Positions 1 to 15,553 of a stretch of 37,296 bases of DNA are shown here, piece after piece. This DNA comes from Gammaproteobacteria bacterium (GTDB lineage: Bacteria; Pseudomonadota; Gammaproteobacteria; SZUA-229). Position 1 is the stretch's first letter, and each line of letters starts with the position of its first letter. The stretch lies in the NCBI GenBank assembly GCA_041572275.1, contig JBFFSQ010000003.1, forward strand, positions 1-37,296, written 5' to 3'. The notes under the pieces are model-generated. The model was not told the origin of the DNA and searched no databases. It saw nothing but the letters and a program-made list of their open reading frames with translations. The position numbers and the translations under genes are program-made.

Positions 1-77
1 GAATATCCGGCTTCATCAAGTAGCATGGCCGTAGTATTTTGATGTTCTATATTGTCATGAACCAGTGCAATATTCAT
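1..77 (-). CDS. Partial CDS (N-terminus only, runs off the left edge); possibly a response-regulator receiver domain
   Basis: A minus-strand ATG at 77-75 opens a frame that stays open to position 1 (MNIALVHDNIEHQNTTAMLLDEAGY...). The pattern resembles the beta1/alpha1 start of CheY-like receivers. Only 25 codons are visible and the SD is weak. Confidence 0.3.
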   Translation of the reverse strand, partial: MNIALVHDNIEHQNTTAMLLDEAGY

Positions 78-340
78 TGTCTCAATCCGATTAAAAAATG
101 CCATCCCTGGCTTAAGTTCCACGGGGGGAATGTCTAAAGGTTAAGGTACATAATGGATACCTGCGCTATTGAATCCATGATAGGCCTGTTTCCATATATG
201 CTAGTTGAGCAATTAATATGCCAGTAAATAAGGCGGGTTTTAGAGGGTTGGAAAAGGAAAAGCGGGCGAAAAATGTGCAACTGATAATTAGTTTGTGCAT
301 TAACTGTGCAGATGAAAAAAAGAGTGTGTGGTGATGAAAT

Positions 341-372
341 AAAAAATAGCCGGGTGACCCGGCTATTTTTAT
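341..372 (-). terminator. Rho-independent terminator after the globin gene (end of the redox operon)
   Basis: Stem tagccggg/cccggcta (347-354 / 358-365). On the minus strand it is followed by a T-run (complement of the A-run at 341-346). It lies about 30 nt downstream of the stop at 397. Confidence 0.8.
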
Positions 373-396: not shown

Positions 397-813
397 TCAG
401 GCAGCCTGTTCAGCGGCGGCTGCTTTCATCGTGTCTGCAACCAGAGTGTAAACGGTTGTCCAGGCAGCCTCCACTTCTTCAGTGAAGGCATCTTTCAGTC
501 CTGCGCCCAGCGTCCAGATCAACGCTGCACCGACCGTGTCATAATCTTCATCTTTTACGCCATAATCGACATGACGTTTACCCATGTCTTGTAAGGCGGG
601 GACGATGGCTTCGACATTATCCAGTGCGTTAACAGCGGTATTTAAAATAGCCATTAATTTACGCCCCTGCTCTTTCATGTCACCTTTAAACATGGATTTA
701 ACTTGTGGATCCAGTTCAAATAGTTTGCCATAGAAAAGCTCAGCTGCTGTTTCTGATATCGGAAGGACCTTGGCCCATGATTCTTTAACCAGTGTAATTT
801 GTTCGGGTGTCAT
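397..813 (-). CDS. Single-domain globin (3-on-3 bacterial haemoglobin; no reductase domain, no signal peptide)
   Basis: 138 aa. Motifs align by eye with the Vitreoscilla Hb / flavohaemoglobin globin domain: ELFYGKLF (Tyr at B10), KEQGRKLMA (Gln at E7), GKRHVDYGV (proximal His F8). It starts 35 nt after the upstream gene. Confidence 0.85.
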   Translation of the reverse strand: MTPEQITLVKESWAKVLPISETAAELFYGKLFELDPQVKSMFKGDMKEQGRKLMAILNTAVNALDNVEAIVPALQDMGKRHVDYGVKDEDYDTVGAALIWTLGAGLKDAFTEEVEAAWTTVYTLVADTMKAAAAEQAA

Positions 814-848
814 TAGTAATTTCCTCGTAAAAGTTAGAATAAATTGAA

Positions 849-1442
849 TTAGCCGTCGATGGGGATACGAATAACTACACCACCCATAACATCACCGATT
901 TTAAAATCGGTTTTGGGTGAGTCTTTGTGCTTGTTGTGACAGGAGACACAAACCGGGGCGACGCCAGTATCTGCGTAAATAGCAGTGAAGTAGTTCTGCC
1001 CCCCCAATTTCTCTTCGGTATAAAAGTTTTTGCCTTTATTCTTGGCAATAAATTCCAGGCCCTCTTTTTCAGCGGGGGTTTTCGGGGCATTTTGCTTGTT
1101 GATAGGCCAGATCGACTGCAATGAGTAGCTGAAATTAACATCTGGATTACTGGCTATACGCTTGGCAACATGCTCAGCACCCATGCGGAACATCTGCGCG
1201 GGTAAGGGTAGTGCTTTATCATCGTCAAAATACTCACTGGCTTTAATCACTTTTTCTTTTTTTACCAGGCGGTTAACTACTTTGCGGGTGTAAATAGAGC
1301 GGTCAGAATCAACAACGGTGTGCAGGGCATCAGCCATAGCTTTAACGGGCACCTTGTTTTCACCAATTGCATATGCTGATGTAGCAAGCAGGTTGGCAGA
1401 TAGAATTGTGCTTAATACAAGTACAGGTTTGGATGGTTTCAT
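849..1442 (-). CDS. Secreted DUF3365 (Tll0287-like) c-type haem protein
   Basis: 197 aa. Signal peptide MKPSKPVLVLSTILSANLLATSAYA. Single CxxCH (CVSCH) near the C-terminus in the DUF3365 context ...YFTAIYADTGVAPVCVSCH...GDVMGGVVIRIP. Confidence 0.8.
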   Translation of the reverse strand: MKPSKPVLVLSTILSANLLATSAYAIGENKVPVKAMADALHTVVDSDRSIYTRKVVNRLVKKEKVIKASEYFDDDKALPLPAQMFRMGAEHVAKRIASNPDVNFSYSLQSIWPINKQNAPKTPAEKEGLEFIAKNKGKNFYTEEKLGGQNYFTAIYADTGVAPVCVSCHNKHKDSPKTDFKIGDVMGGVVIRIPIDG

Positions 1443-1490
1443 AAAACTAACTCCTGGTGGTCGGGTTTGAATTTAGATGGGTTAATTTGT

Positions 1491-2891
1491 TTAGTCATCA
1501 GACTGTTCTCCAGTGCTATGGCGTAGATGTTCACGTTTGGCCATATCCATAGACTGAATATGAAGTGTGGGCTTGCCCTGAAAGTTGTTGTTGATCAGCT
1601 TGTCGTCGGCAAGCGCATCAATAGAAAACTCAAGGCCATGACATTGCATACAAACGGGGCGTAGCATTTTGGTATTGGGTTTAAGGCTGGCGCTTTGATT
1701 GTGTTGAACCATGATGCGATTAAGCCATTCACTGACATCGTAGCTCGCCCGGGGCATGTGGCAGCTTGCACAGGAGACACCACTGCCAGCCGGTAGCTGG
1801 CCAGACTGTTCCTGCTGCCAGGCTGCATAATGGGCGGACTGTTTATAGGCCAGGCTGTGTTCATCATTGTGGCAAGATAGGCATTGTTCGACGGCAGCAT
1901 CGACCAGATCGTAGCTATGGGCAGGATGACAACTGTTGCACTGCAGTTCCGTACCATGGGACTCGGCTTTCATCGGCAGGCGCGCCAGTGCCGGTGTCAT
2001 TGCCGGTAGGCCAACCTGTAGGCGCATGCCGTGTTTGCCGCGTTTAAAGTGTTTTACTTCGGCACCGTGACATTGAGTGCAGGCATTTAGTTCAGGCTGG
2101 TTAGTCCAGTTGGCTGCGCCACCATCTTCATTGAGAGGGATATGACAGGCGCTGCAATTGGCACCCATTTTGGCGTGAGCTGAGCGAGCCCAGTCCTGTT
2201 TGATTTGATCTGAAGTCTCGACCGTTAGTGGTTTATCAATATCACTCAGGCTCAATGCCTGCACGGGATAACGATCATGGGGGTAGTTCGCTACCTCATC
2301 CAGTACGTCAGCAAACACACGTTTGGGTAGAGTTCTGGAGCTCAGTAATTCGGGTTCATCACGATGCTTGATCAGGAAATCGGTATAGAGAGCACGATTG
2401 TTGTGATAGTTGTGGCAACCGGCACTGGCACAAGTATCGAAGGCCATGCCCTCATGGCTGGGTCGTTCGTCGGCTATACCGGCATGGCAATGAACACAGA
2501 AATCCCGCGCCTGGGTTAAGCCATTTTTCTGGGTAATCGCAGGCTGGTGTTCACTGTGACAGCTGATGCAGTTAAGGGCGTTAATTTTGACCAGTCGATC
2601 AGCGTTTCTAGGGTCCTTGAATTTACTCCTGGGATGAGAATCAAATGGCTTTTGACGGTTATCACCATGACATTCGATACAACTTTCAAGAATTTGATCC
2701 TGATTATCATAAGCATTCTTGTGACAACTGTCACAGCTCATACCAATCTGATGATGGCCATTGCTCAGCTCGCCAGGCATAAAAACAGTTTTGTCATTGT
2801 CGAACCACAACTTGTGACTGAAGTAAGCCAGGCTGATTAGGATAAGAAGGGTCCAGATTAACCAGTAGGTTTTGTTATCAGAAGTGAACAT
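1491..2891 (-). CDS. Membrane-anchored multihaem cytochrome c (10 CxxCH + 1 CxxxxCH)
   Basis: Haem motifs CDSCH, CIECH, CISCH, CVHCH, CASAGCH, CSACH, CTQCH, CNSCH, CLSCH, CASCH and CMQCH. N-terminal TM helix YWLIWTLLILISLAYF. I prefer the ATG at 2891 (MFTSDNK...), 2 nt after the upstream stop, over the ORF-track start at 2948, which overlaps the upstream gene. Confidence 0.85.
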   Translation of the reverse strand: MFTSDNKTYWLIWTLLILISLAYFSHKLWFDNDKTVFMPGELSNGHHQIGMSCDSCHKNAYDNQDQILESCIECHGDNRQKPFDSHPRSKFKDPRNADRLVKINALNCISCHSEHQPAITQKNGLTQARDFCVHCHAGIADERPSHEGMAFDTCASAGCHNYHNNRALYTDFLIKHRDEPELLSSRTLPKRVFADVLDEVANYPHDRYPVQALSLSDIDKPLTVETSDQIKQDWARSAHAKMGANCSACHIPLNEDGGAANWTNQPELNACTQCHGAEVKHFKRGKHGMRLQVGLPAMTPALARLPMKAESHGTELQCNSCHPAHSYDLVDAAVEQCLSCHNDEHSLAYKQSAHYAAWQQEQSGQLPAGSGVSCASCHMPRASYDVSEWLNRIMVQHNQSASLKPNTKMLRPVCMQCHGLEFSIDALADDKLINNNFQGKPTLHIQSMDMAKREHLRHSTGEQSDD

Positions 2892-2893
2892 AA

Positions 2894-4873
2894 TTAAAAG
2901 TAATATGTCTTCAGTATATGGAAGCCGAGTAGTGCCGGTAATGGCCATAAAATGAGAATGTGGCTCCAGGTGGAAAATTGTCGCAGTCGTTTTGACATCT
3001 GCCGTGACAGTTGGTGTTCACTGGCAATGGCGATGCCGGCAATTGCACCGGTAAATAGCAGACTACTGAAGGTAAGCATCAGGTACAGGTTTAGGTTGTC
3101 TCCAAAGCGGAAACCGGTATGGGCAAACAGGATAAAGATAACCAGTAGTGCAATGACAGTATGGGCAACTCGCCAGTCTGCATAATCTCCTAGTTGATGC
3201 AGTTTACGTGTGCGTTTTTTGATTGAGAGCACGGATATAATGAGAGCAAATACAAGGATGCCAAAGCCACTGATTTGTTTGAATAGGCTGGTACGCCAGA
3301 ATGTGTCCAGGCTGATGGACTGTACTGATGCGGCATAATCCATACCGGGAAAGGAAAAAATAGTTAATGCAATGAGAATGCTGATTAAAGAACTCAGCAA
3401 CAATAGATGAGAGCCTTTTACCGGTTCAGGTGTCGATTCTGAATTGGCAAAGTCTATGAGTAAGGGTTTGCATGAGCCGCAGACAGTCGAAGCACCGGTG
3501 ATACGTGCAAGGTCTATAACTGACTCTGCACCAGATTGTTGTGCCTGGCTGAGCTGGCCCCGGGTGACTCCGGTACAGTTGCAAACGGTAGCCGTTGCTG
3601 GCCATTCACAGATATTGTCATGAGTCTTGTCAGGCCAGAGGTAGCCATGTTGTTTGAAGCGTCTGATCTGCCAGGGCCAGACACGTTGTTTACGGGCAAT
3701 GGCTTCACGTAATCGATTGATACCCTGCATTTCACCAACAGCAATGGCACCCTGGAGCCGACCATTGATGATGATGAGTTTACGATAAATATGCTGGCCA
3801 CTGTCATGGAAAATGGCGAGTTCTCTGGAACGTGCTGATTCGCCAGTGTTGCCCATACTAAAAACAGGATAGTCAATTACTTTCAGGTTGGTTGCGGTAA
3901 TGCTGCCCAGATATTGTGCCTGTTTACCGTTAATTCGATGCGCACAAACTGCAGCCTGTTCATAACCGGGGGAGACCAGGCCATAAATCTGATTGTTGTG
4001 TTCAGCGCACTCACCAATGGCAAAGATATTCTGGTCGTTCGTTTGCAACTGGTTGTTAACACGAATGCCTCGGCCAATTTTAATACCGGAATTTCGTATC
4101 AGTTCAATATTAGGTTCAATGCCAGTAGCGATGATCAAGGTATCGCACTCAATAACTTCATCGTTACCTAGCAGGACAGCTGCCACTTTGTCGTCGCCAA
4201 TAATACGCTTAACCGGGCTGTTTAAGCGTATGTTGATACCTGACTGTTCAAGCTGGTACTTTAAGTAGCTACCTGCGTGTTGGTCGAGTTGTCTGAACAA
4301 TAGCCACATGCTGTGTTCGATAACCGTTACCTGTGTGTTGAAGCGCTGCATGGCCCGAGCGGCCTCAAGGCCCAGGAGACCACCGCCAATGACCACTGTG
4401 TGTCGAGTACGGGTGCTACGACTCATTAAGGTCTGCGCATCATTCAGATTGCGTAAGGTAAAGATATTTTTGAGTGCAATACCTTCGATATTTGGGATAT
4501 GTGGACGTGAGCCTGTTGCCAGAATCAGTTGTTTATAACTGTGAGTGATACCCTGGCTATCGGTGACTTCTTTCGAATAGCGATTGATATCAATAATAGG
4601 ATTATTAAAGAAGGTATTGATATTGGGTTTATGTAATATATCCAGGCTGTTATAAAGTGATGCGTGTTTTACTTCACCGGCCACAAGGGCGGAGAGCTGG
4701 ATTCGGTTATAGGGCTCCCAGGGCTCAGCACCAAAAATTGCAATGCGGGTATCTGGGTTTAACTGACATAATTCATAGACTGCACGGACACCTACAGGGC
4801 CAGAGCCGATAATGATAATATCGTGTGCCTGTTTCACAAATGTGTTATCGATTGTCAGTGTTTCAGCCAACAT
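2894..4873 (-). CDS. NAD(P)H/FAD oxidoreductase (NirB N-terminal-like) fused to a BFD-type [2Fe-2S] domain and a 5-TM four-histidine membrane domain
   Basis: 659 aa. Two Rossmann motifs (IIIIGSGPVG, VVIGGGLLGLE). C431-x-C433...C465-x2-C468 (CNCTGVTRGQL...CGSCKP). Five hydrophobic helices lie between residues about 488 and 659, with H571/H585 in helix 3 and H638/H652 in helix 5. Confidence 0.85.
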   Translation of the reverse strand: MLAETLTIDNTFVKQAHDIIIIGSGPVGVRAVYELCQLNPDTRIAIFGAEPWEPYNRIQLSALVAGEVKHASLYNSLDILHKPNINTFFNNPIIDINRYSKEVTDSQGITHSYKQLILATGSRPHIPNIEGIALKNIFTLRNLNDAQTLMSRSTRTRHTVVIGGGLLGLEAARAMQRFNTQVTVIEHSMWLLFRQLDQHAGSYLKYQLEQSGINIRLNSPVKRIIGDDKVAAVLLGNDEVIECDTLIIATGIEPNIELIRNSGIKIGRGIRVNNQLQTNDQNIFAIGECAEHNNQIYGLVSPGYEQAAVCAHRINGKQAQYLGSITATNLKVIDYPVFSMGNTGESARSRELAIFHDSGQHIYRKLIIINGRLQGAIAVGEMQGINRLREAIARKQRVWPWQIRRFKQHGYLWPDKTHDNICEWPATATVCNCTGVTRGQLSQAQQSGAESVIDLARITGASTVCGSCKPLLIDFANSESTPEPVKGSHLLLLSSLISILIALTIFSFPGMDYAASVQSISLDTFWRTSLFKQISGFGILVFALIISVLSIKKRTRKLHQLGDYADWRVAHTVIALLVIFILFAHTGFRFGDNLNLYLMLTFSSLLFTGAIAGIAIASEHQLSRQMSKRLRQFSTWSHILILWPLPALLGFHILKTYYF

Positions 4874-4882
4874 AAACTATCC

Positions 4883-4928
4883 AAAAAAAACGCCATGAAA
4901 AGAAACCAGCCAGTTTCTTTTCATGGCG
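4883..4928 (-). terminator. Strong intrinsic terminator-like hairpin 10 nt upstream of the flavoprotein start codon (possible attenuator or sRNA terminator)
   Basis: Perfect 16-bp stem (cgccatgaaaagaaac at 4891-4906 / gtttcttttcatggcg at 4913-4928) with a 6-nt loop. On the minus strand it is followed by T8 (complement of 4883-4890). The ATG is at 4873. Confidence 0.75.
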
Positions 4929-5210
4929 CCGTTGCCATATAAATTAACTTAGTGATTTATTAGCAGCATGTATGCCAATTGAATAAAATGATAACAAAAC
5001 ACAGTAAACATCAGTGTTTGCGTAGGTGTGGTTAACTGGTGGGGTGTGTTAATGATGGAGCTGTTGTCCAGTGTTGCACTAGAATAGACCCTCATTGCAC
5101 AGTTACTGAACAATATGTGCTAAACAATGCACAATGAACAAACTTAAGTATTCACTGAATACAGGCTGAAGAGCACTTGCTGCTATCGGGTGGCAACAAT
5201 GTCATAGGTG

Positions 5211-5299: not shown

Positions 5300-5710
5300 T
5301 CAGGCTTCGGCTGCTGCTGATTTCATGGTGCCAGCGACCAGACTATAGGTTTCCAGCCATGCCGATTTGACATCATTAGTGAAGTTTTCTTGCAGGCCCT
5401 GCTCCAGGGTCCAGATCAGAGCAGATCCTACAGTGTCATAGTGTTCATTTTTAACGCCGTAATCGAGATGACGTTTACCCATTTGTGCCAAAACTGGAGT
5501 CAATGTGTCCAGTTTATCGATAGAATTCACGGCAATATTTAAAGTCGCCATCAGTTTCTGTCCCTGTTCCTGCATGTTGCCTTTGAATAGCGGCCTGACT
5601 TCAGGATCGAGTTCAAACAGTTTGTCGTAAAAAAGTTCAGCAGCTTTGTCTGCAATAGGCACTACCTGGGCCCATGAGTCTTTAACAAGCTGAATCTGTT
5701 CGGGTGTCAT
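5300..5710 (-). CDS. Single-domain globin, paralogue of the 397-813 gene
   Basis: MTPEQIQLVKDSWAQV... is colinear with the other globin and shows the same FY.KLF / EQG.KLMA / GKRH.DYGV motifs. I prefer the ATG at 5710; the track start at 5779 adds 23 non-homologous residues. Confidence 0.85.
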   Translation of the reverse strand: MTPEQIQLVKDSWAQVVPIADKAAELFYDKLFELDPEVRPLFKGNMQEQGQKLMATLNIAVNSIDKLDTLTPVLAQMGKRHLDYGVKNEHYDTVGSALIWTLEQGLQENFTNDVKSAWLETYSLVAGTMKSAAAEA

Positions 5711-6016: not shown

Positions 6017-6433
6017 TCAGTCTCTTCTAAAGGGTAAGACATCAGCTTTTTCATCATTTATGATTTCGGAAAGTTGCTCGCCCAGCATTAAATCCATGGC
6101 TTCCAGTGTGCGTCTGAGAATCATACTGGCAGCAAAGTGAAATATACGAACTTCGCATTGAATGGCCTCTTGTAGTGAGTCACGGCCTTCGATTTGAAAG
6201 TCGGTCCAGGCAAGAATAGGAAAGTCATTCAATGCTCTGTCAACAACAATCCATGCATCCTTTTGCAGTATTAGATCCAGGTGTTTTAATTTGGGTATAG
6301 GAAATCGTATTTGTCTGCCAAATCTTTTTAAAGCGATTTGAACTTCGTTGTAATAAACAGCCTCAACCTTTCCTTCACGGTTATGAAGTAAAGGGACTTC
6401 GTTATGTCGAGTATAGAGCTGTGTAGGATTCAA
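6017..6433 (-). CDS. Hypothetical protein (138 aa), no recognisable domain
   Basis: Clean ORF downstream of the cbbO terminator on the same strand. No signal peptide, TM helix or motif that I can name. Confidence 0.55.
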   Translation of the reverse strand: MNPTQLYTRHNEVPLLHNREGKVEAVYYNEVQIALKRFGRQIRFPIPKLKHLDLILQKDAWIVVDRALNDFPILAWTDFQIEGRDSLQEAIQCEVRIFHFAASMILRRTLEAMDLMLGEQLSEIINDEKADVLPFRRD

Positions 6434-12436: not shown

Positions 12437-13345
12437 ATGCATGTGACATTACGTCAATTAGAGGTATTCGAGGCAGTGGCTCGCTTAAATAGCTATACCA
12501 AAGCGGCCGAGGAATTGCACCTGAGTCAGCCTGGTGTTTCTATGCAAATCAAACAGTTAGAAGAAAGTATCGGCCTGCCGCTGTTTGAGCATGTTGGTAA
12601 GAAAATTTTTATAACTACCGCTGGTCGGGAAATGTACAGCTATAGCCAGACTATCAGTCATTTGTTAGATGAGGCGGATACGGTCATTGAAGAATTGAAA
12701 GGTGTACAAAGCGGTCGTCTGGCGATTTCCGTAGCCACTACTGCCAGTCATTTTGCCACTCGCCTGTTGGCTGCCTTTTCGCAGCGTTATGAGGGTGTCA
12801 CCATCAGTCTGGATATCACCAACCGGGAAAGCCTGCGTCGCCAGCTGGAGCATAATGAGCCGGATCTGGTTATCATGGGTCAACCACCAGAAGGTGTGGA
12901 TACAGAATCCGAGATCTTCATGGAAAATCCGCTGGTAATGATAGCACCACCTGATCATCCTCTTGTCGAAGAAAAAAATATTCCATTAGAACAATTTGAG
13001 CATGAGCATTTTGTGGTGCGTGAGGGAGGCTCCGGTACGCGCAGTGCAATTCAGCGTTTTTTTGAAGATCACGGCGTGAGTTTTCATACCGGTATTGAGA
13101 TGAGCAGTAACGAAGCCATCAAGCAGGCGGTTGAGGCCGGGCTGGGCCTGGGGATAGTGTCCATCCATACTCTGGAGCTGGAGCTGGCAACTAATACCCT
13201 GGTGACGCTGGATGTGGAGGATTTTCCAATCATGCGTCATTGGCACATTGTGCAGCGATCGGGAAAACGTTTATCTCCTGTTGCCCAGACGTTCAAGCAG
13301 TTTGTACTCGACGAAGCGAAGCAGTTTATTCGGCTGGAAAAATAA
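12437..13345 (+). CDS. cbbR: LysR-family transcriptional regulator of the cbb operon
   Basis: 302 aa. N-terminal HTH (YTKAAEELHLSQPGVSMQIKQLEE) plus a LysR substrate-binding domain. It is divergently adjacent to cbbL. Confidence 0.9.
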   Translation: MHVTLRQLEVFEAVARLNSYTKAAEELHLSQPGVSMQIKQLEESIGLPLFEHVGKKIFITTAGREMYSYSQTISHLLDEADTVIEELKGVQSGRLAISVATTASHFATRLLAAFSQRYEGVTISLDITNRESLRRQLEHNEPDLVIMGQPPEGVDTESEIFMENPLVMIAPPDHPLVEEKNIPLEQFEHEHFVVREGGSGTRSAIQRFFEDHGVSFHTGIEMSSNEAIKQAVEAGLGLGIVSIHTLELELATNTLVTLDVEDFPIMRHWHIVQRSGKRLSPVAQTFKQFVLDEAKQFIRLEK

Positions 13346-13432: not shown

Positions 13433-15553
13433 TTGAATAATTATAATAATGTCCAGAAATCCGGTCCTGACCGGTTTGTCAAAGAACCCATCGTTATTAG
13501 CTCTGTATTACTCCTGATTAGCTGGACCTTGTTAACCGGCTATTCTCTCTACTGGAATATTACCAATCTGTATCAGAGGCAAGTGGATCTTGCCGCTTCG
13601 GAGGCGCGTGCCAACTGGAATAAAGATCGTGCGTTTCGTGACTGGACCACTCGACAGGGTGGTGTCTATGTCAAAACCAGTGATCAGGTTCGACCCAATG
13701 AAAACCTGGCGCATTTAAAGAATCGGGATTTGCACACCCTGGAAGGAGTCCAGCTTACATTGTTGAATCCAGCGTTTATTTTGCGGGAAATGACTGCTGA
13801 GTTTGAGCAGGCAACAGGAATTAAGGGACGCCTCACTGCGAAACAGGTCTTTAATCTTGAAAATAAGGCCGATGCCTGGGAGCAGGCTGCTATTGCGCGG
13901 TTTGAGCAAGGGATCGAAGAAGTAATTGAAGAGACAGAAATCGATGGTGCACCTTATTTGCGTTTCATGAAACCGGTATACGTCAATAAGGAGTGTATTC
14001 ATTGCCATGGTGATCTGGGATTTAAAGAAGGCGATTTACGTGGTGGTATGAGCGTGTCTGTGCCTTTAACGCCCTACCTGACAAGTGCTGCCCAGACCGT
14101 GAATTCCATGGTCTTGACCCACGCCAGTGTCTGGTTGCTAGGATTTCTGGGGATTGTGGCATTTGCCTGGATGGCCCGTGTTCGAGAAAAAGACCGTTTT
14201 GTTTTGCAGGCGCAGCTGGCCCATGATGCCCTGCACGATGTCCTCACTGATCTACCTAACCGTACGCTGTTTACCGATCGACTGAATACCGCGATTCGCA
14301 TGAAACAGCGAGATCCTGGCTATCAGTTTGCCATTTGTTTTCTCGACCTGGATCGTTTCAAGAACCTGAATGATAGCTACGGTCATAAACTGGGTGATGA
14401 AATGCTCAAGCAGGTGGCAGAGCGTTTTAGTGAAATTACCCGGCCTATGGACACGGTTGCGCGTATGGGCGGCGATGAGTTTACGTTCCTGCTGGAAAAT
14501 TATGCGAATGACAAGGAAGCAGTATCGATTATTGAGCGTTTACTGGCTACCTTGAAGGAGCCCTTTGATATAGCCGGTACGCTAATTTATACCAATGCCA
14601 GTATCGGTGTGTGCTTTGGCGATAGTAACTATAAGCGTGCCGATGACATGATACGAGATGCAGATATTGCCATGTACCAGGCCAAGTCTTCGGGCAAAGG
14701 CCAGGCCTATATCTTTGATCCACATATGCATCGTCAGGCGGTGGTGGCTATGCAAATTGAAAATGATCTCCGCCATGCTCTGATCAATGAGCAATTTGAA
14801 GTCTATTACCAGCCAATCATCAATCTGCAGGAAAACAGGATTGATGGCTTTGAGGCCTTGTTACGATGGCACCACCCGCAATTAGGGGATGTACCGCCGG
14901 ATGATTTTATTCCGGTGGCGGAAGATATGGGGGTGATTGGTGAAATTGGTGAATGGGTGCTCAGACAGGCATGTGCCCAGGTTCAGCAGTGGAGTGATCA
15001 GTATCGACCTGAGGAGGGCTTTTTTGTCTCGGTAAACCTGTCGGGTCGGCAGATCATTGACAGTGGGCTCAAGCAGACAATTGCAGCTATCCTTGAGTCA
15101 ACAGGTATGGATCCAGCTCGCTTGCATTGTGAGATTACCGAGACCATGCTAATCCAGCATAAGGAATTGGCCGCAGTAGTAATGGATGATATTCAGGCGA
15201 TGGGGGTGCATATCAGTATTGATGATTTCGGTAAGGGCTATTGTTCCCTGACGTATCTGCATCGATTCAAGTTCAATACCCTGAAAATTGATAAATCATT
15301 CGTCCAGGATATGAGTAACTATGGTAAGGGACTATCATTGGTACGCACAATCATGGTGCTGGCTCGAGATTTCGGTACTGCAGTTGTTGCCGAGGGCGTT
15401 GAAGATAAAGATCAGCTTGATCGCCTACTGTCACTTAAGTGTCGATGGGCACAGGGCTACTATTTCTATAAGCCGTCACCTGCAGACGCTCTGAGTCACT
15501 GCCTGCAGGCGGGTTGTCACCAGTTGCTTGGCAAACTGGGCTGCTGTCAATGA
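13433..15553 (+). CDS. Membrane-bound DUF3365 (haem-c sensor)-GGDEF-EAL c-di-GMP signalling protein
   Basis: 706 aa. TM helix, then a periplasmic DUF3365 with CIHCH (encoded at 13994-14008), then a second TM helix. The GGDEF domain has an RPMD I-site 5 residues before GGDEF. The EAL domain has EALLRW, DDFGKGY and EGVE. The TTG start is taken from the ORF track and no SD is seen. Confidence 0.85.
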   Translation: MNNYNNVQKSGPDRFVKEPIVISSVLLLISWTLLTGYSLYWNITNLYQRQVDLAASEARANWNKDRAFRDWTTRQGGVYVKTSDQVRPNENLAHLKNRDLHTLEGVQLTLLNPAFILREMTAEFEQATGIKGRLTAKQVFNLENKADAWEQAAIARFEQGIEEVIEETEIDGAPYLRFMKPVYVNKECIHCHGDLGFKEGDLRGGMSVSVPLTPYLTSAAQTVNSMVLTHASVWLLGFLGIVAFAWMARVREKDRFVLQAQLAHDALHDVLTDLPNRTLFTDRLNTAIRMKQRDPGYQFAICFLDLDRFKNLNDSYGHKLGDEMLKQVAERFSEITRPMDTVARMGGDEFTFLLENYANDKEAVSIIERLLATLKEPFDIAGTLIYTNASIGVCFGDSNYKRADDMIRDADIAMYQAKSSGKGQAYIFDPHMHRQAVVAMQIENDLRHALINEQFEVYYQPIINLQENRIDGFEALLRWHHPQLGDVPPDDFIPVAEDMGVIGEIGEWVLRQACAQVQQWSDQYRPEEGFFVSVNLSGRQIIDSGLKQTIAAILESTGMDPARLHCEITETMLIQHKELAAVVMDDIQAMGVHISIDDFGKGYCSLTYLHRFKFNTLKIDKSFVQDMSNYGKGLSLVRTIMVLARDFGTAVVAEGVEDKDQLDRLLSLKCRWAQGYYFYKPSPADALSHCLQAGCHQLLGKLGCCQ

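Follow-up and report, generated by a model that had tools for sequence, protein, structure and literature searches.

A four-gene haem redox operon conserved across bacterial phyla, inferred to span the membrane and to belong to the nitrate-assimilation regulon

Introduction

A four-gene operon conserved across bacterial phyla and linked to the nitrate-assimilation regulon seems to carry electrons from cytoplasmic NAD(P)H, through an undescribed membrane domain inferred to hold two haems, to an 11-haem periplasmic cytochrome and a haem-Cache protein, alongside a cytoplasmic globin of the NO-dioxygenase type. No curated family, solved structure or paper that we could find describes this combination. 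The window, i.e. the whole stretch of DNA analysed, comprises 37,296 nucleotides of a gammaproteobacterial contig (JBFFSQ010000003.1, assembly GCA_041572275.1). A first-pass annotation made from the sequence alone had proposed that four minus-strand genes form an electron wire between cytoplasm and periplasm with a haem-based ligand binder at each end, had offered nitrogen oxides among its guesses for the substrate, and had pointed to the adjacent RuBisCO locus. Our interest was to examine these genes with regard to content, synteny, cofactor motifs, topology and regulatory context. The observation was confirmed and its interpretation was supported, although three corrections were needed, which are given below.

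Results and Discussion

Gene content and domains

The following features were identified, all on the minus strand:

1..77 (-), 5' end (25 codons) of a NasT-like response-regulator/ANTAR antiterminator gene that runs off the window
209..223 (-), sigma-54 type -24/-12 box (TGGCATATTAATTGC) upstream of the NasT-like gene
342..370 (-), intrinsic terminator ending the four-gene operon
397..813 (-), cytoplasmic single-domain 3/3 globin (138 aa)
849..1442 (-), periplasmic stand-alone haem-c Cache protein (DUF3365/Tll0287-like, sCache_haem; 197 aa) with no axial Cys
1491..2891 (-), membrane-anchored periplasmic 11-haem cytochrome c (466 aa; an alternative upstream ATG at 2948 gives 485 aa)
2894..4873 (-), fusion protein (659 aa) of a NirB-N-type FAD/NAD(P)H flavoprotein, a BFD [2Fe-2S] domain and a five-helix membrane domain
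4881..4930 (-), leader attenuator, a 19-bp intrinsic terminator hairpin (4930-4889) plus T8
4922..4939 (-), ANTAR/NasT-type hexaloop hairpin (TATGGC-AACGGC-GCCATG)
4963..4977 (-), sigma-54 type -24/-12 promoter box (TGGCATACATGCTGC) of the operon
5300..5710 (-), second globin paralogue (136 aa), directly upstream and transcribed separately

The gaps between the four genes are 2, 48 and 35 nt. The fusion protein consists of Pyr_redox_2, Rubredoxin_C and BFD [2Fe-2S] domains followed by a helical membrane part. Its N-terminal 480 residues are collinear with NirB, the large subunit of assimilatory NADH-nitrite reductase (TIGR02374 positions 1-470, E 2e-115), whereas the sirohaem/[4Fe-4S] catalytic half (NIR_SIR) is absent and a membrane domain takes its place. 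The protein starts directly with its GxGxxG Rossmann motif, and the GxGxxG motifs, the four BFD cysteines (C431, C433, C465, C468) and four transmembrane histidines (H571/H585 and H638/H652) are invariant among its homologues.

These histidines are placed i/i+14 on two transmembrane helices, which supports the idea of an electron wire across the membrane. The AlphaFold model of the membrane domain shows five transmembrane helices (pLDDT 87), and positively charged loops (KKRTRK, SRQMSKRLRQ) place H571 and H638 on the inner side and H585 and H652 on the outer side. As in di-haem transmembrane carriers such as cytochrome b of the bc1 complex, the NOX/ferric-reductase domain and MsrQ, two helices each carry two His 14 residues apart, which could sandwich one haem near each membrane face, and as in NOX the carrier is fused to a flavin dehydrogenase. 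However, the domain gave no Pfam hit to Ferric_reduct, Cytochrom_B or PepSY_TM, only sub-threshold hits to DUF4405 and Ni_hydr_CYTB, no PDB sequence match and no Foldseek match, so that haem b binding rests on the histidine pattern alone; moreover, the helices number five, and the dehydrogenase is of the NirB type with an Fe-S cluster rather than of the FNR type.

The cytochrome possesses 10 CxxCH motifs plus one CxxxxCH (CASAGCH), hence 11 haems, and one N-terminal hydrophobic helix. A profile search of the PDB hit NrfA at E 7.6e-7, though only locally, in that the C-terminal six-haem half resembles the NrfA haem-packing modules. Nearly all significant PDB matches to this profile are ammonia-forming nitrite reductases, a few being other multihaem cytochromes, and the best Foldseek match is the Kuenenia reducing HAO-like protein Kustc0458 (6h5l_A, E 5.7e-3), albeit with a TM-score of only 0.27. 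NrfA, octahaem TvNiR/ONR and Kustc0458 are, like it, periplasmic multihaem proteins, and act on nitrogen oxides. In contrast to NrfA the cytochrome has no CxxCK haem, the NrfA active-site His aligns with Glu, and the proposed donor is an NAD(P)H flavoprotein and not NrfH, NrfBCD or quinol. At least 12 non-motif histidines are conserved for 11 haems, so every haem could be bis-His and no open site is evident; the N-terminal half is poorly modelled (pLDDT below 50).

It is doubtful that the cytochrome is a divergent NrfA/octahaem-type enzyme that makes ammonium from nitrite or hydroxylamine in the periplasm as an alternative or supplement to NirBD. The PDB matches, faint Cytochrom_C552 hits in some homologues, co-regulation with nitrate uptake genes, and the fact that the cytochrome is the best-conserved protein of the set (41-66% identity across phyla) speak for such an enzyme. 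Apart from the missing catalytic signatures, however, a genuine NirB(D) is encoded right beside the cluster in three of the related loci (L004, L009 and L088; loci used for comparison are given L numbers), nitrite made by a cytoplasmic Nas enzyme would first have to be exported, and no role would be left for the globin or the haem-Cache protein.

The DUF3365 protein (PF11845, 69.8 bits against a cutoff of 24.1) has a Sec signal ending AYA|I and a single CVSCH. No other Cys is conserved in 14 cluster-linked homologues, while M84, H172 and M186 are invariant, and a profile of these proteins hits Tll0287 (5b82) at E 1.5e-3. Cys-less sCache_haem domains bind NO tightly, whereas the Cys/His type does not (PMC12889525). 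Stand-alone members were proposed to be of the redox type, yet this one lacks the axial Cys, a trait so far characterised only in a signalling, NO-binding member. Either of the invariant Met84 and Met186 could nevertheless make it a six-coordinate electron carrier rather than a ligand binder.

The globin (PF00042, E 1e-18) has no export signal and possesses Tyr B10 (Y28), Gln E7 (Q49) and His F8 (H80), which align with its best solved relatives, the Methylacidiphilum globins 3wfw, 3s1i and 3ubc, at E about 4e-30. It is 54% identical to a globin inside the nrtABC-globin-nirBD-nasA cluster of Yoonia (L059); the globin type recurs inside nas clusters.

Synteny across phyla

Related loci were found in Gammaproteobacteria, Hydrogenophilales, Pseudazoarcus, Planctomycetota, Verrucomicrobiota and Binatia. 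Across 20 distinct loci, counting the window and one contig known only as a gene list, the multihaem gene directly follows the fusion gene in 19 of the 19 loci that extend far enough, and the DUF3365 gene is in the cluster in 18 of 18. A 3/3 globin is present in 16, a 2/2 globin replaces it in one (Verrucomicrobiota, L010), and it is absent within 8 kb in two (L001 and L002). Recurrence of the same gene order across at least four phyla is more than chance. Between the fusion and cytochrome genes, an overlap of up to 7 nt or a gap of up to about 15 nt was observed in most loci, and 50-60 nt in two. Apart from the partial match to NirB, NCBIfam has no model for the fusion or the cytochrome above its cutoff, and full-text literature searches found no description of the combination.

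Regulatory context

The hairpin at 4930-4889, which the first-pass annotation had taken for a terminator bracketing the operon, ends only 8 nt before the start codon and is not an operon boundary but a NasT-type attenuator inside the operon's own leader; the downstream element at 370-342 (13-bp stem with 6 GC pairs, followed by a T-run) does end the operon. In the leader, a sigma-54 box is followed by a hexaloop hairpin with A at loop position 1 and G at position 4, whose 3' arm and part of its loop belong to the 5' arm of the terminator. A pattern scan for sigma-54 boxes found 5 matches in the window against 1.24 expected, two of which lie in the two relevant intergenic regions. The attenuator recurs upstream of the fusion gene in L003, L005, L007, L082, L083, L085 and L087, and equivalent boxes in L001, L003, L005, L081, L082, L085 and L087.

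The same architecture, with a hairpin of the GGAC-AAAGGC-GTCC type plus terminator, precedes nirB in six Pseudomonas loci and one Gallionella locus, and nrtA and porin genes in the cluster loci. The role of the hairpin in NasT binding is documented for the NalA leader of P. putida nirBD (PMC10783516), which likewise has a sigma-54 promoter and an A1/G4 hexaloop hairpin overlapping a Rho-independent terminator just before the first gene. However, NalA needs two such hairpins, and in the window and in L087 only one clear one is visible downstream of the predicted promoter, instead of two or three.

The gene running off the left edge of the window, also missed previously together with the sigma-54 boxes, begins MNIALVHDNIEHQNTTAMLLDEAGY and matches the N-terminus of the Response_reg+ANTAR protein of L087 (10835-11428), which lies at the same place right after the globin, at 21 of 25 residues. 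An ANTAR regulator lies next to the cluster in 11 loci and NrtABC-like transporter genes in 12. The operon was therefore assigned to the NtrC/NasT nitrate-assimilation regulon, which lends support to the earlier guess of a nitrogen oxide.

Proposed mechanism

We consider the operon most likely an accessory redox module of the assimilatory nitrate/nitrite regulon, with a probability of about 0.5; no experimental data exist on any member. Transcription would start at the NtrC/sigma-54 type promoter, stop at the leader terminator and read through only when a NasT-type ANTAR protein, whose gene lies next door, binds the hexaloop hairpin. The 659-aa protein is inferred to oxidise NAD(P)H, probably NADH, on the cytoplasmic side and to pass electrons through FAD, its [2Fe-2S] cluster and two haems b, held by His571/His638 on the inner and His585/His652 on the outer side, to the periplasmic face. 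The cytochrome, translationally coupled to the fusion gene, would take them on to the Cys-less haem-Cache protein and, in many relatives, to an extra mono-haem cytochrome c, where a small nitrogen oxide would be bound and reduced; NO is the most likely substrate, hydroxylamine and nitrite are possible. Such an export of electrons dissipates membrane potential, which is costly.

The same flavoprotein domain would keep the cytoplasmic globin reduced so that it can dioxygenate NO, and the cell would then be protected on both sides of the membrane from NO made as a by-product of nitrate assimilation. An experimentally supported precedent is the narK-bjgb-flp-nasC system of Bradyrhizobium (PMC4724949), where a single-domain 3/3 globin (Bjgb) is encoded with an FAD/NAD(P)H flavoprotein (Flp) of the kind found in nas operons. 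Both belong to the nitrate-assimilation regulon, are NasT-dependent and are proposed to remove NO formed during nitrate assimilation, Flp being proposed to re-reduce Bjgb. In the present operon the flavoprotein carries a BFD [2Fe-2S] domain and is fused to a five-helix, four-His membrane domain, an 11-haem cytochrome and a periplasmic haem-Cache protein follow, and neither nasC nor narK lies in the operon.

Inward electron flow, in which the periplasmic cytochrome c pool (fed for example by sulfur oxidation in the autotrophic hosts) would reduce the globin or a cytoplasmic Nas enzyme and save NAD(P)H, appears unlikely. In its favour, a mono-haem class I cytochrome c is part of the cluster in L004, L005, L007, L010, L081, L082, L085 and L088, the cluster lies beside RuBisCO genes in the window and L087, and Flp is needed for growth on nitrate and was proposed to donate electrons to the nitrate reductase NasC (PMC4724949). 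However, the FAD and NAD(P)H motifs are invariant, which would be unnecessary for an import wire, moving electrons inward works against the membrane potential, the cluster also occurs in Planctomycetota, Verrucomicrobiota and Ketobacter, presumably mostly heterotrophs, and no molybdopterin nitrate reductase gene was seen among the annotated flanks of the loci.

Just as improbable seems a general NAD(P)H-driven electron export not specific to nitrogen oxides, be it a periplasmic metal (ferric) reductase, a peroxide or peroxynitrite reductase or a redox-balancing valve. The layout of flavin, two transmembrane haems and outer acceptor may be likened to NOX and ferric-reductase logic, and in L081 the upstream neighbours are FeoB/FeoC, FMN_bind and PepSY_TM genes. 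Yet iron-related neighbours occur in this one locus only, the consistent neighbours are nitrate-assimilation genes, the leader is of the NasT type, and the constant partnership with a globin and a haem-Cache protein points to a gaseous or nitrogen-oxide ligand.

Least likely is a sensor, in which the haem-Cache protein and the cytochrome would report periplasmic NO or redox state and the flavoprotein would only keep them poised. Haem-Cache domains are mostly sensor inputs, the Cys-less type behaves as an NO sensor, a haem-Cache-GGDEF-EAL protein is encoded in the same window, and c-di-GMP modulates NasT in P. putida (PMC10783516). None of the four proteins carries an output domain, though, an 11-haem chain with a dedicated NAD(P)H dehydrogenase is an expensive way to poise a sensor, and the tight translational coupling suggests a stoichiometric enzyme complex.

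Neighbouring genes

The adjacency to RuBisCO genes is real (cbbL 12231-10789, cbbS 10709-10353, CbbQ 9797-8982, CbbO 8888-6531), but this autotroph context, to which the first-pass annotation had appealed, is lineage-specific and incidental, being shared only with a close relative (L087). The second globin paralogue, likewise overlooked, is 65% identical to the operon globin, has its own terminator at about 5243-5211 and is also present upstream of the fusion gene in the 86%-identical contig.

Operon structure and gene content

Four ORFs were confirmed on the minus strand, exactly where the first-pass annotation had placed them, separated by gaps of 2, 48 and 35 nt:

4873-2894, minus strand: 659-aa fusion protein of a NirB-type flavoprotein and a membrane domain
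2891-1491, minus strand: 466-aa multihaem cytochrome
1442-849, minus strand: 197-aa Tll0287-like (DUF3365) haem-Cache protein
813-397, minus strand: 138-aa globin

The start of the multihaem gene is ambiguous, as the ORF extends to an ATG at 2948, overlapping the fusion gene by 55 nt, and a 485-aa version is on record, but homologue lengths (445-475 aa) as well as the stop-start spacing in other loci favour 2891. Searches against Pfam and NCBIfam assigned Pyr_redox_2, Rubredoxin_C and a BFD-type [2Fe-2S] domain to the 659-aa protein, a portion collinear with the first 470 positions of the NirB model TIGR02374 (E 2e-115). The 466-aa protein carries 10 CxxCH motifs and one CASAGCH. The localisation assigned in the first-pass annotation (no export signal on the flavoprotein catalytic domain and the globin, one N-terminal TM anchor on the multihaem protein, a cleavable signal peptide on the DUF3365 protein) can be read straight from the sequence. 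Both hairpin-plus-T-run elements that had been reported to bracket the operon exist, and RuBisCO, CbbQ and CbbO genes are indeed adjacent.

Conservation and synteny

The fusion protein has many full-length relatives of about 660 aa at 46-86% identity. Across 17 diverse members both GxGxxG motifs, the four BFD cysteines (C431, C433, C465, C468) and four histidines in the membrane part (H571, H585, H638, H652) are invariant, and the histidines remain so in a 27-sequence alignment of the membrane part alone. An exhaustive profile search with the membrane domain detected 828 representative clusters (at 50% identity) at E up to 1e-3, nearly all hits lying at the C-terminus of 640-690-aa proteins, so that the domain is essentially specific to this fusion. 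A cluster-member look-up gave no organism or product names.

Gene neighbourhoods were examined in ten species-representative genomes and eight further metagenome or MAG loci (loci are designated by L and a number), plus one contig available only as a gene list. Hosts include Chromatiaceae, Ketobacter, Pseudazoarcus, Hydrogenophilales, Pirellulaceae, Planctomycetaceae, Verrucomicrobiota and Binatia. The cytochrome gene follows the fusion gene in 19 of 19 loci that extend far enough, in most of them overlapping by up to 7 nt or separated by up to about 15 nt, and in two by 50-60 nt. The haem-Cache gene is in the cluster in 18 of 18 loci and a 3/3 globin is present in 16, whereas L001 and L002 have no globin within 8 kb. 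In the Verrucomicrobiota locus L010 a truncated 2/2 globin (PF01152; 7501-7872, plus strand) sits directly upstream of the fusion gene in place of the 3/3 globin; here the haem-Cache and mono-haem cytochrome c genes are also upstream, and a CcsBA-like cytochrome c assembly gene follows the multihaem gene. Eight loci add a mono-haem cytochrome c between the haem-Cache gene and the globin, or beside the cluster. The synteny that the first-pass annotation had made a condition of its proposal was thus confirmed.

Regulatory context

The first-pass annotation missed that in these loci the cluster sits among nitrate-assimilation genes. A Response_reg+ANTAR (NasT-like) gene is adjacent in 11 loci and NrtABC-like transporter genes in 12. 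A genuine NirB is adjacent in three, with a separate NirD in L004, fused to NirD in L009 and cut by the locus edge in L088, and the idea that the cluster replaces NirBD was rejected for this reason. Alginate_exp-type outer-membrane porin genes recur beside the cluster in six loci (L001 14201-15436; L004 6565-7899; L006 5435-7111; L009 5841-7310; L083 13674-14876; L088 7067-8350).

Locus L087 comes from a MAG whose fusion protein is 60% identical to that of the window. Its gene order matches that of the window: RuBisCO, CbbQ, CbbO, a small ORF, then a glutaredoxin-like gene that the window lacks, the four genes, NasT and NrtABC. In the window a 138-aa ORF with no Pfam or NCBIfam match (6017-6433, minus strand) lies directly after CbbO, and L087 has a 135-aa ORF with no Pfam match at the same position. 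However, the RuBisCO neighbourhood is shared only with L087, the other loci having unrelated neighbours, and a functional meaning of it was rejected.

The following elements were recognised at the left edge of the window and in and upstream of the 426-nt region that precedes the fusion gene:

77-1, minus strand: 25 codons of a NasT-like ANTAR response-regulator gene running off the window, matching the N-terminus of the L087 NasT at 21 of 25 positions
223-209, minus strand: near-consensus sigma-54 box, TGGCATATTAATTGC, preceding the NasT-like gene
4930-4889, minus strand: 19-bp terminator with T8, ending 8 nt before the ATG of the fusion gene
4939-4922, minus strand: hairpin TATGGC-AACGGC-GCCATG
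4977-4963, minus strand: sigma-54 type box, TGGCATACATGCTGC
5243-5211 (approximately): terminator of the second globin gene
5300-5710, minus strand: second single-domain globin, 65% identical to the operon globin

By analogy with L087, a nitrate ABC transporter probably follows beyond the window edge. Five sigma-54 matches were found in the window against 1.24 expected in the whole window, and two of the five fall in the two relevant intergenic regions. The hairpin and the 19-bp terminator share bases and are therefore mutually exclusive. The same arrangement was found before the fusion gene in L003, L005, L007, L082, L083, L085 and L087, before nrtA and porin genes in L001, L007, L082 and L083, and before genuine nirB in six Pseudomonas loci and one Gallionella locus that had been obtained incidentally, all with hexaloops carrying A at position 1 and G at position 4, typically GGAC-AAAGGC-GTCC. 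In P. putida this leader (NalA) is an experimentally shown target of NasT antitermination, in which the A and G loop residues are needed for NasT binding, and the nas operons are NtrC/RpoN-activated (PMC10783516). The upstream element, taken as an operon-bounding terminator in the first-pass annotation, is thus an attenuator, presumably nitrate-responsive, and not an operon boundary. Although the leader (4977-4881) shares its architecture with the Pseudomonas nirB leaders, only one hexaloop hairpin is visible downstream of the predicted promoter in the window and in L087, whereas NalA uses two and two are present in L003, L007, L082, L083 and L085. A first hexaloop hairpin between the sigma-54 box and the hairpin at 4939-4922 was searched for and not found, a weak AAAC-ACTGAT-GTTT candidate lying upstream of the predicted promoter not being counted. 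Searches against Rfam, at gathering thresholds over the whole window and at E up to 10 over the leader, gave nothing meaningful, the only structured hit there being the terminator of the second globin gene, which resembled the 'trpB motif' at E 0.44. In L001 the porin gene carries the same combination of sigma-54 box, double hexaloop and terminator, and so may encode a nitrate/nitrite-regulated porin. The second globin gene of the window has its own terminator and no sigma-54 or hexaloop leader, and the same upstream globin is present in the 86%-identical contig.

Fusion protein

The AlphaFold model of residues 478-659 is confident (pLDDT 87, pTM 0.81) and shows five predicted transmembrane helices. 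H571 and H585 lie at the two ends of helix 3 (87-108 of the model), H638 and H652 at the two ends of helix 5 (147-181). Each pair is 14 residues apart, which would correspond to the spacing of the two haem-ligating helices of cytochrome b. The strongly basic loops KKRTRK and SRQMSKRLRQ mark the cytoplasmic side, from which it is inferred that one haem would be placed near each membrane face.

Despite this histidine pattern, no match to known di-haem membrane cytochrome families (Ferric_reduct/NOX, cytochrome b, Ni_hydr_CYTB, PepSY_TM) was obtained by profile or fold: searches of Pfam at E up to 10 gave only sub-threshold hits to DUF4405 (E 0.005) and Ni_hydr_CYTB (E 0.38), a PDB profile search returned 0 hits and the best Foldseek E-value was 0.2. 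Compared with NirB, the FAD/NADH domains and the BFD [2Fe-2S] domain are shared, but no sirohaem/[4Fe-4S] NIR_SIR domain was hit, and TIGR02374 scores 386.9 bits against a cutoff of 578 because the catalytic half is missing; the true NirB of L009 does have NIR_SIR. The fusion protein is hence not a member of the NirB family.

Multihaem cytochrome

The cytochrome is the best-conserved protein of the set, at 41-66% identity across phyla (41-47% in Planctomycetota and Verrucomicrobiota). A family profile finds mostly ammonia-forming nitrite reductases in the PDB (D. vulgaris NrfA at 7.6e-7, E. coli NrfA at 2e-5, octahaem TvNiR at 7e-4), but the match covers only short haem-packing stretches of about 60 residues. 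All 11 motifs end in His, so that the CxxCK of the catalytic NrfA haem is absent, and the NrfA active-site His (in AQHPEYE) aligns with Glu in the family profile; the protein is therefore not a member of the NrfA family. A periplasmic assimilatory nitrite reductase, which would be one reading of this similarity, is weakened by the missing NrfA signatures as well as by the adjacent NirBD genes and was considered unlikely. The AlphaFold model is mediocre (pLDDT 65), its N-terminal five-haem half being below 50 and unusable. Its best fold match is the Kuenenia reducing HAO-like protein 6h5l_A (E 5.7e-3, probability 0.99), although with a TM-score of only 0.27, while Foldseek hits to NrfA have E above 1. 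At least 12 conserved non-motif histidines exist for 11 haems, a count that is uninformative as to an open (five-coordinate) haem.

Haem-Cache protein

PF11845 is matched at 69.8 bits against a gathering score of 24.1, and the CxxCH motif (CVSCH) is conserved in 14 homologues. A 2026 preprint shows that DUF3365 is a Cache domain with a covalently bound haem c; of the two members studied, a stand-alone one with Cys/His ligation released NO quickly, whereas a Cys-less signalling member bound NO with a koff of about 6e-4 per second (PMC12889525). The cluster's protein is stand-alone but Cys-less in all 14 homologues examined, no Cys lying outside CxxCH in the mature domain and the extra Cys of some homologues being lipobox residues, and it is thus not of the Tll0287-type Cys/His subclass. 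M84, H172 and M186 are invariant. A phmmer search against the PDB missed Tll0287 and a profile found only its C-terminal half, so that the residue equivalent to Cys68 could be placed only roughly, near PAQMFR.

Globin

The single-domain 3/3 globin (PF00042) has a Tyr B10/Gln E7 distal pocket: Tyr B10 (Y28), Gln E7 (Q49) and His F8 (H80) align with the Methylacidiphilum globins 3wfw and 3s1i at E about 4e-30, to which it is closer than to Vitreoscilla haemoglobin, flavohaemoglobin or Cgb. It is a separate 138-aa protein without the fused FNR-like reductase of flavohaemoglobin (Hmp), and NF009805 scores 71 bits against a cutoff of 432. A 54%-identical globin lies inside a canonical nrtABC-globin-nirB-nirD-nasA cluster of Yoonia sp. 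(locus L059, 3243-13344); this globin subfamily is a recurrent member of nitrate-assimilation clusters outside Bradyrhizobium.

Proposed function

Nitrate assimilation is known to produce toxic NO, and the only characterised dedicated counter-measure inside a nas regulon is the cytoplasmic Bjgb-Flp pair. In the Bradyrhizobium narK-bjgb-flp-nasC operon a single-domain globin and a flavoprotein, under NasS-NasT control, counter NO formed by the assimilatory nitrate reductase (PMC4724949). The present operon likewise has such a globin and an FAD/NAD(P)H flavoprotein of the type found in nas operons, encoded on the same strand within one terminator-bounded unit, but the flavoprotein is membrane-fused instead of soluble, and no molybdopterin reductase or MFS gene lies in the operon or in the window. 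The best-supported reading is an accessory module of the nitrate-assimilation regulon that spans the membrane, in which electrons would pass from NAD(P)H to FAD, the [2Fe-2S] cluster, the inner and outer haems b, the anchored 11-haem cytochrome and then the haem-Cache protein, with or without cytochrome c, where a nitrogen oxide would be bound and reduced. The flavoprotein domain would also serve the cytoplasmic globin. In the absence of biochemical data the full statement was given a probability of about 0.5, its core, a nas-regulon member that forms an NAD(P)H-linked transmembrane haem conduit, about 0.75-0.8. The module would work like Bjgb-Flp extended through the membrane and like NOX-type flavin-to-di-haem export, and would extend protection to the periplasm by a quinone-independent path.

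Outward flow is favoured since the NAD(P)H and FAD motifs are invariant, since it runs with the membrane potential and since the cluster also occurs in lineages that are probably mostly heterotrophic; inward import of electrons from the cytochrome c pool was accordingly regarded as doubtful. NO is favoured as substrate by the NasT regulon, the globin partnership (including replacement by a different globin class in L010), the NO-binding behaviour of Cys-less haem-Cache domains and the nitrite-reductase affinity of the cytochrome. A non-specific electron export such as metal reduction appears equally doubtful, and a sensor role was considered the least likely.

No NCBIfam model (release June 2026), Pfam family, solved structure or paper in the literature searched describes the fusion, the cytochrome family or the combination, and a Methylobacter EET paper and a Methylomonas NtrC-regulon paper do not mention it. 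Testable hypotheses arise for three unannotated families, the membrane domain, the 11-haem cytochrome and the Cys-less stand-alone haem-Cache protein, with nitrate under nitrogen limitation as a proposed inducing condition. If the periplasmic branch proved catalytic, the fusion protein, the cytochrome and the haem-Cache protein could together represent a previously unrecognised class of membrane-spanning, NAD(P)H-driven periplasmic nitrogen-oxide (NO/hydroxylamine/nitrite) reductase, built on an undescribed di-haem b membrane fold and widespread in nitrate-assimilating bacteria of several phyla. This would be a new enzyme of the nitrogen cycle and a new route for moving cytoplasmic reducing power to the periplasm without quinones, but it remains a tentative possibility, less likely than not.

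A second haem-Cache protein is encoded at 13433-15553 on the plus strand, next to the LysR-type regulator gene (12437-13345) that lies divergent from cbbL. Its TM-flanked Tll0287-like domain, with Cys only in CIHCH and hence of the Cys-less 'NO-sensor' type, is fused to GGDEF and EAL. As c-di-GMP binds NasT and blocks antitermination in P. putida (PMC10783516), it could be speculated that an NO-sensing c-di-GMP enzyme feeds into control of this operon.
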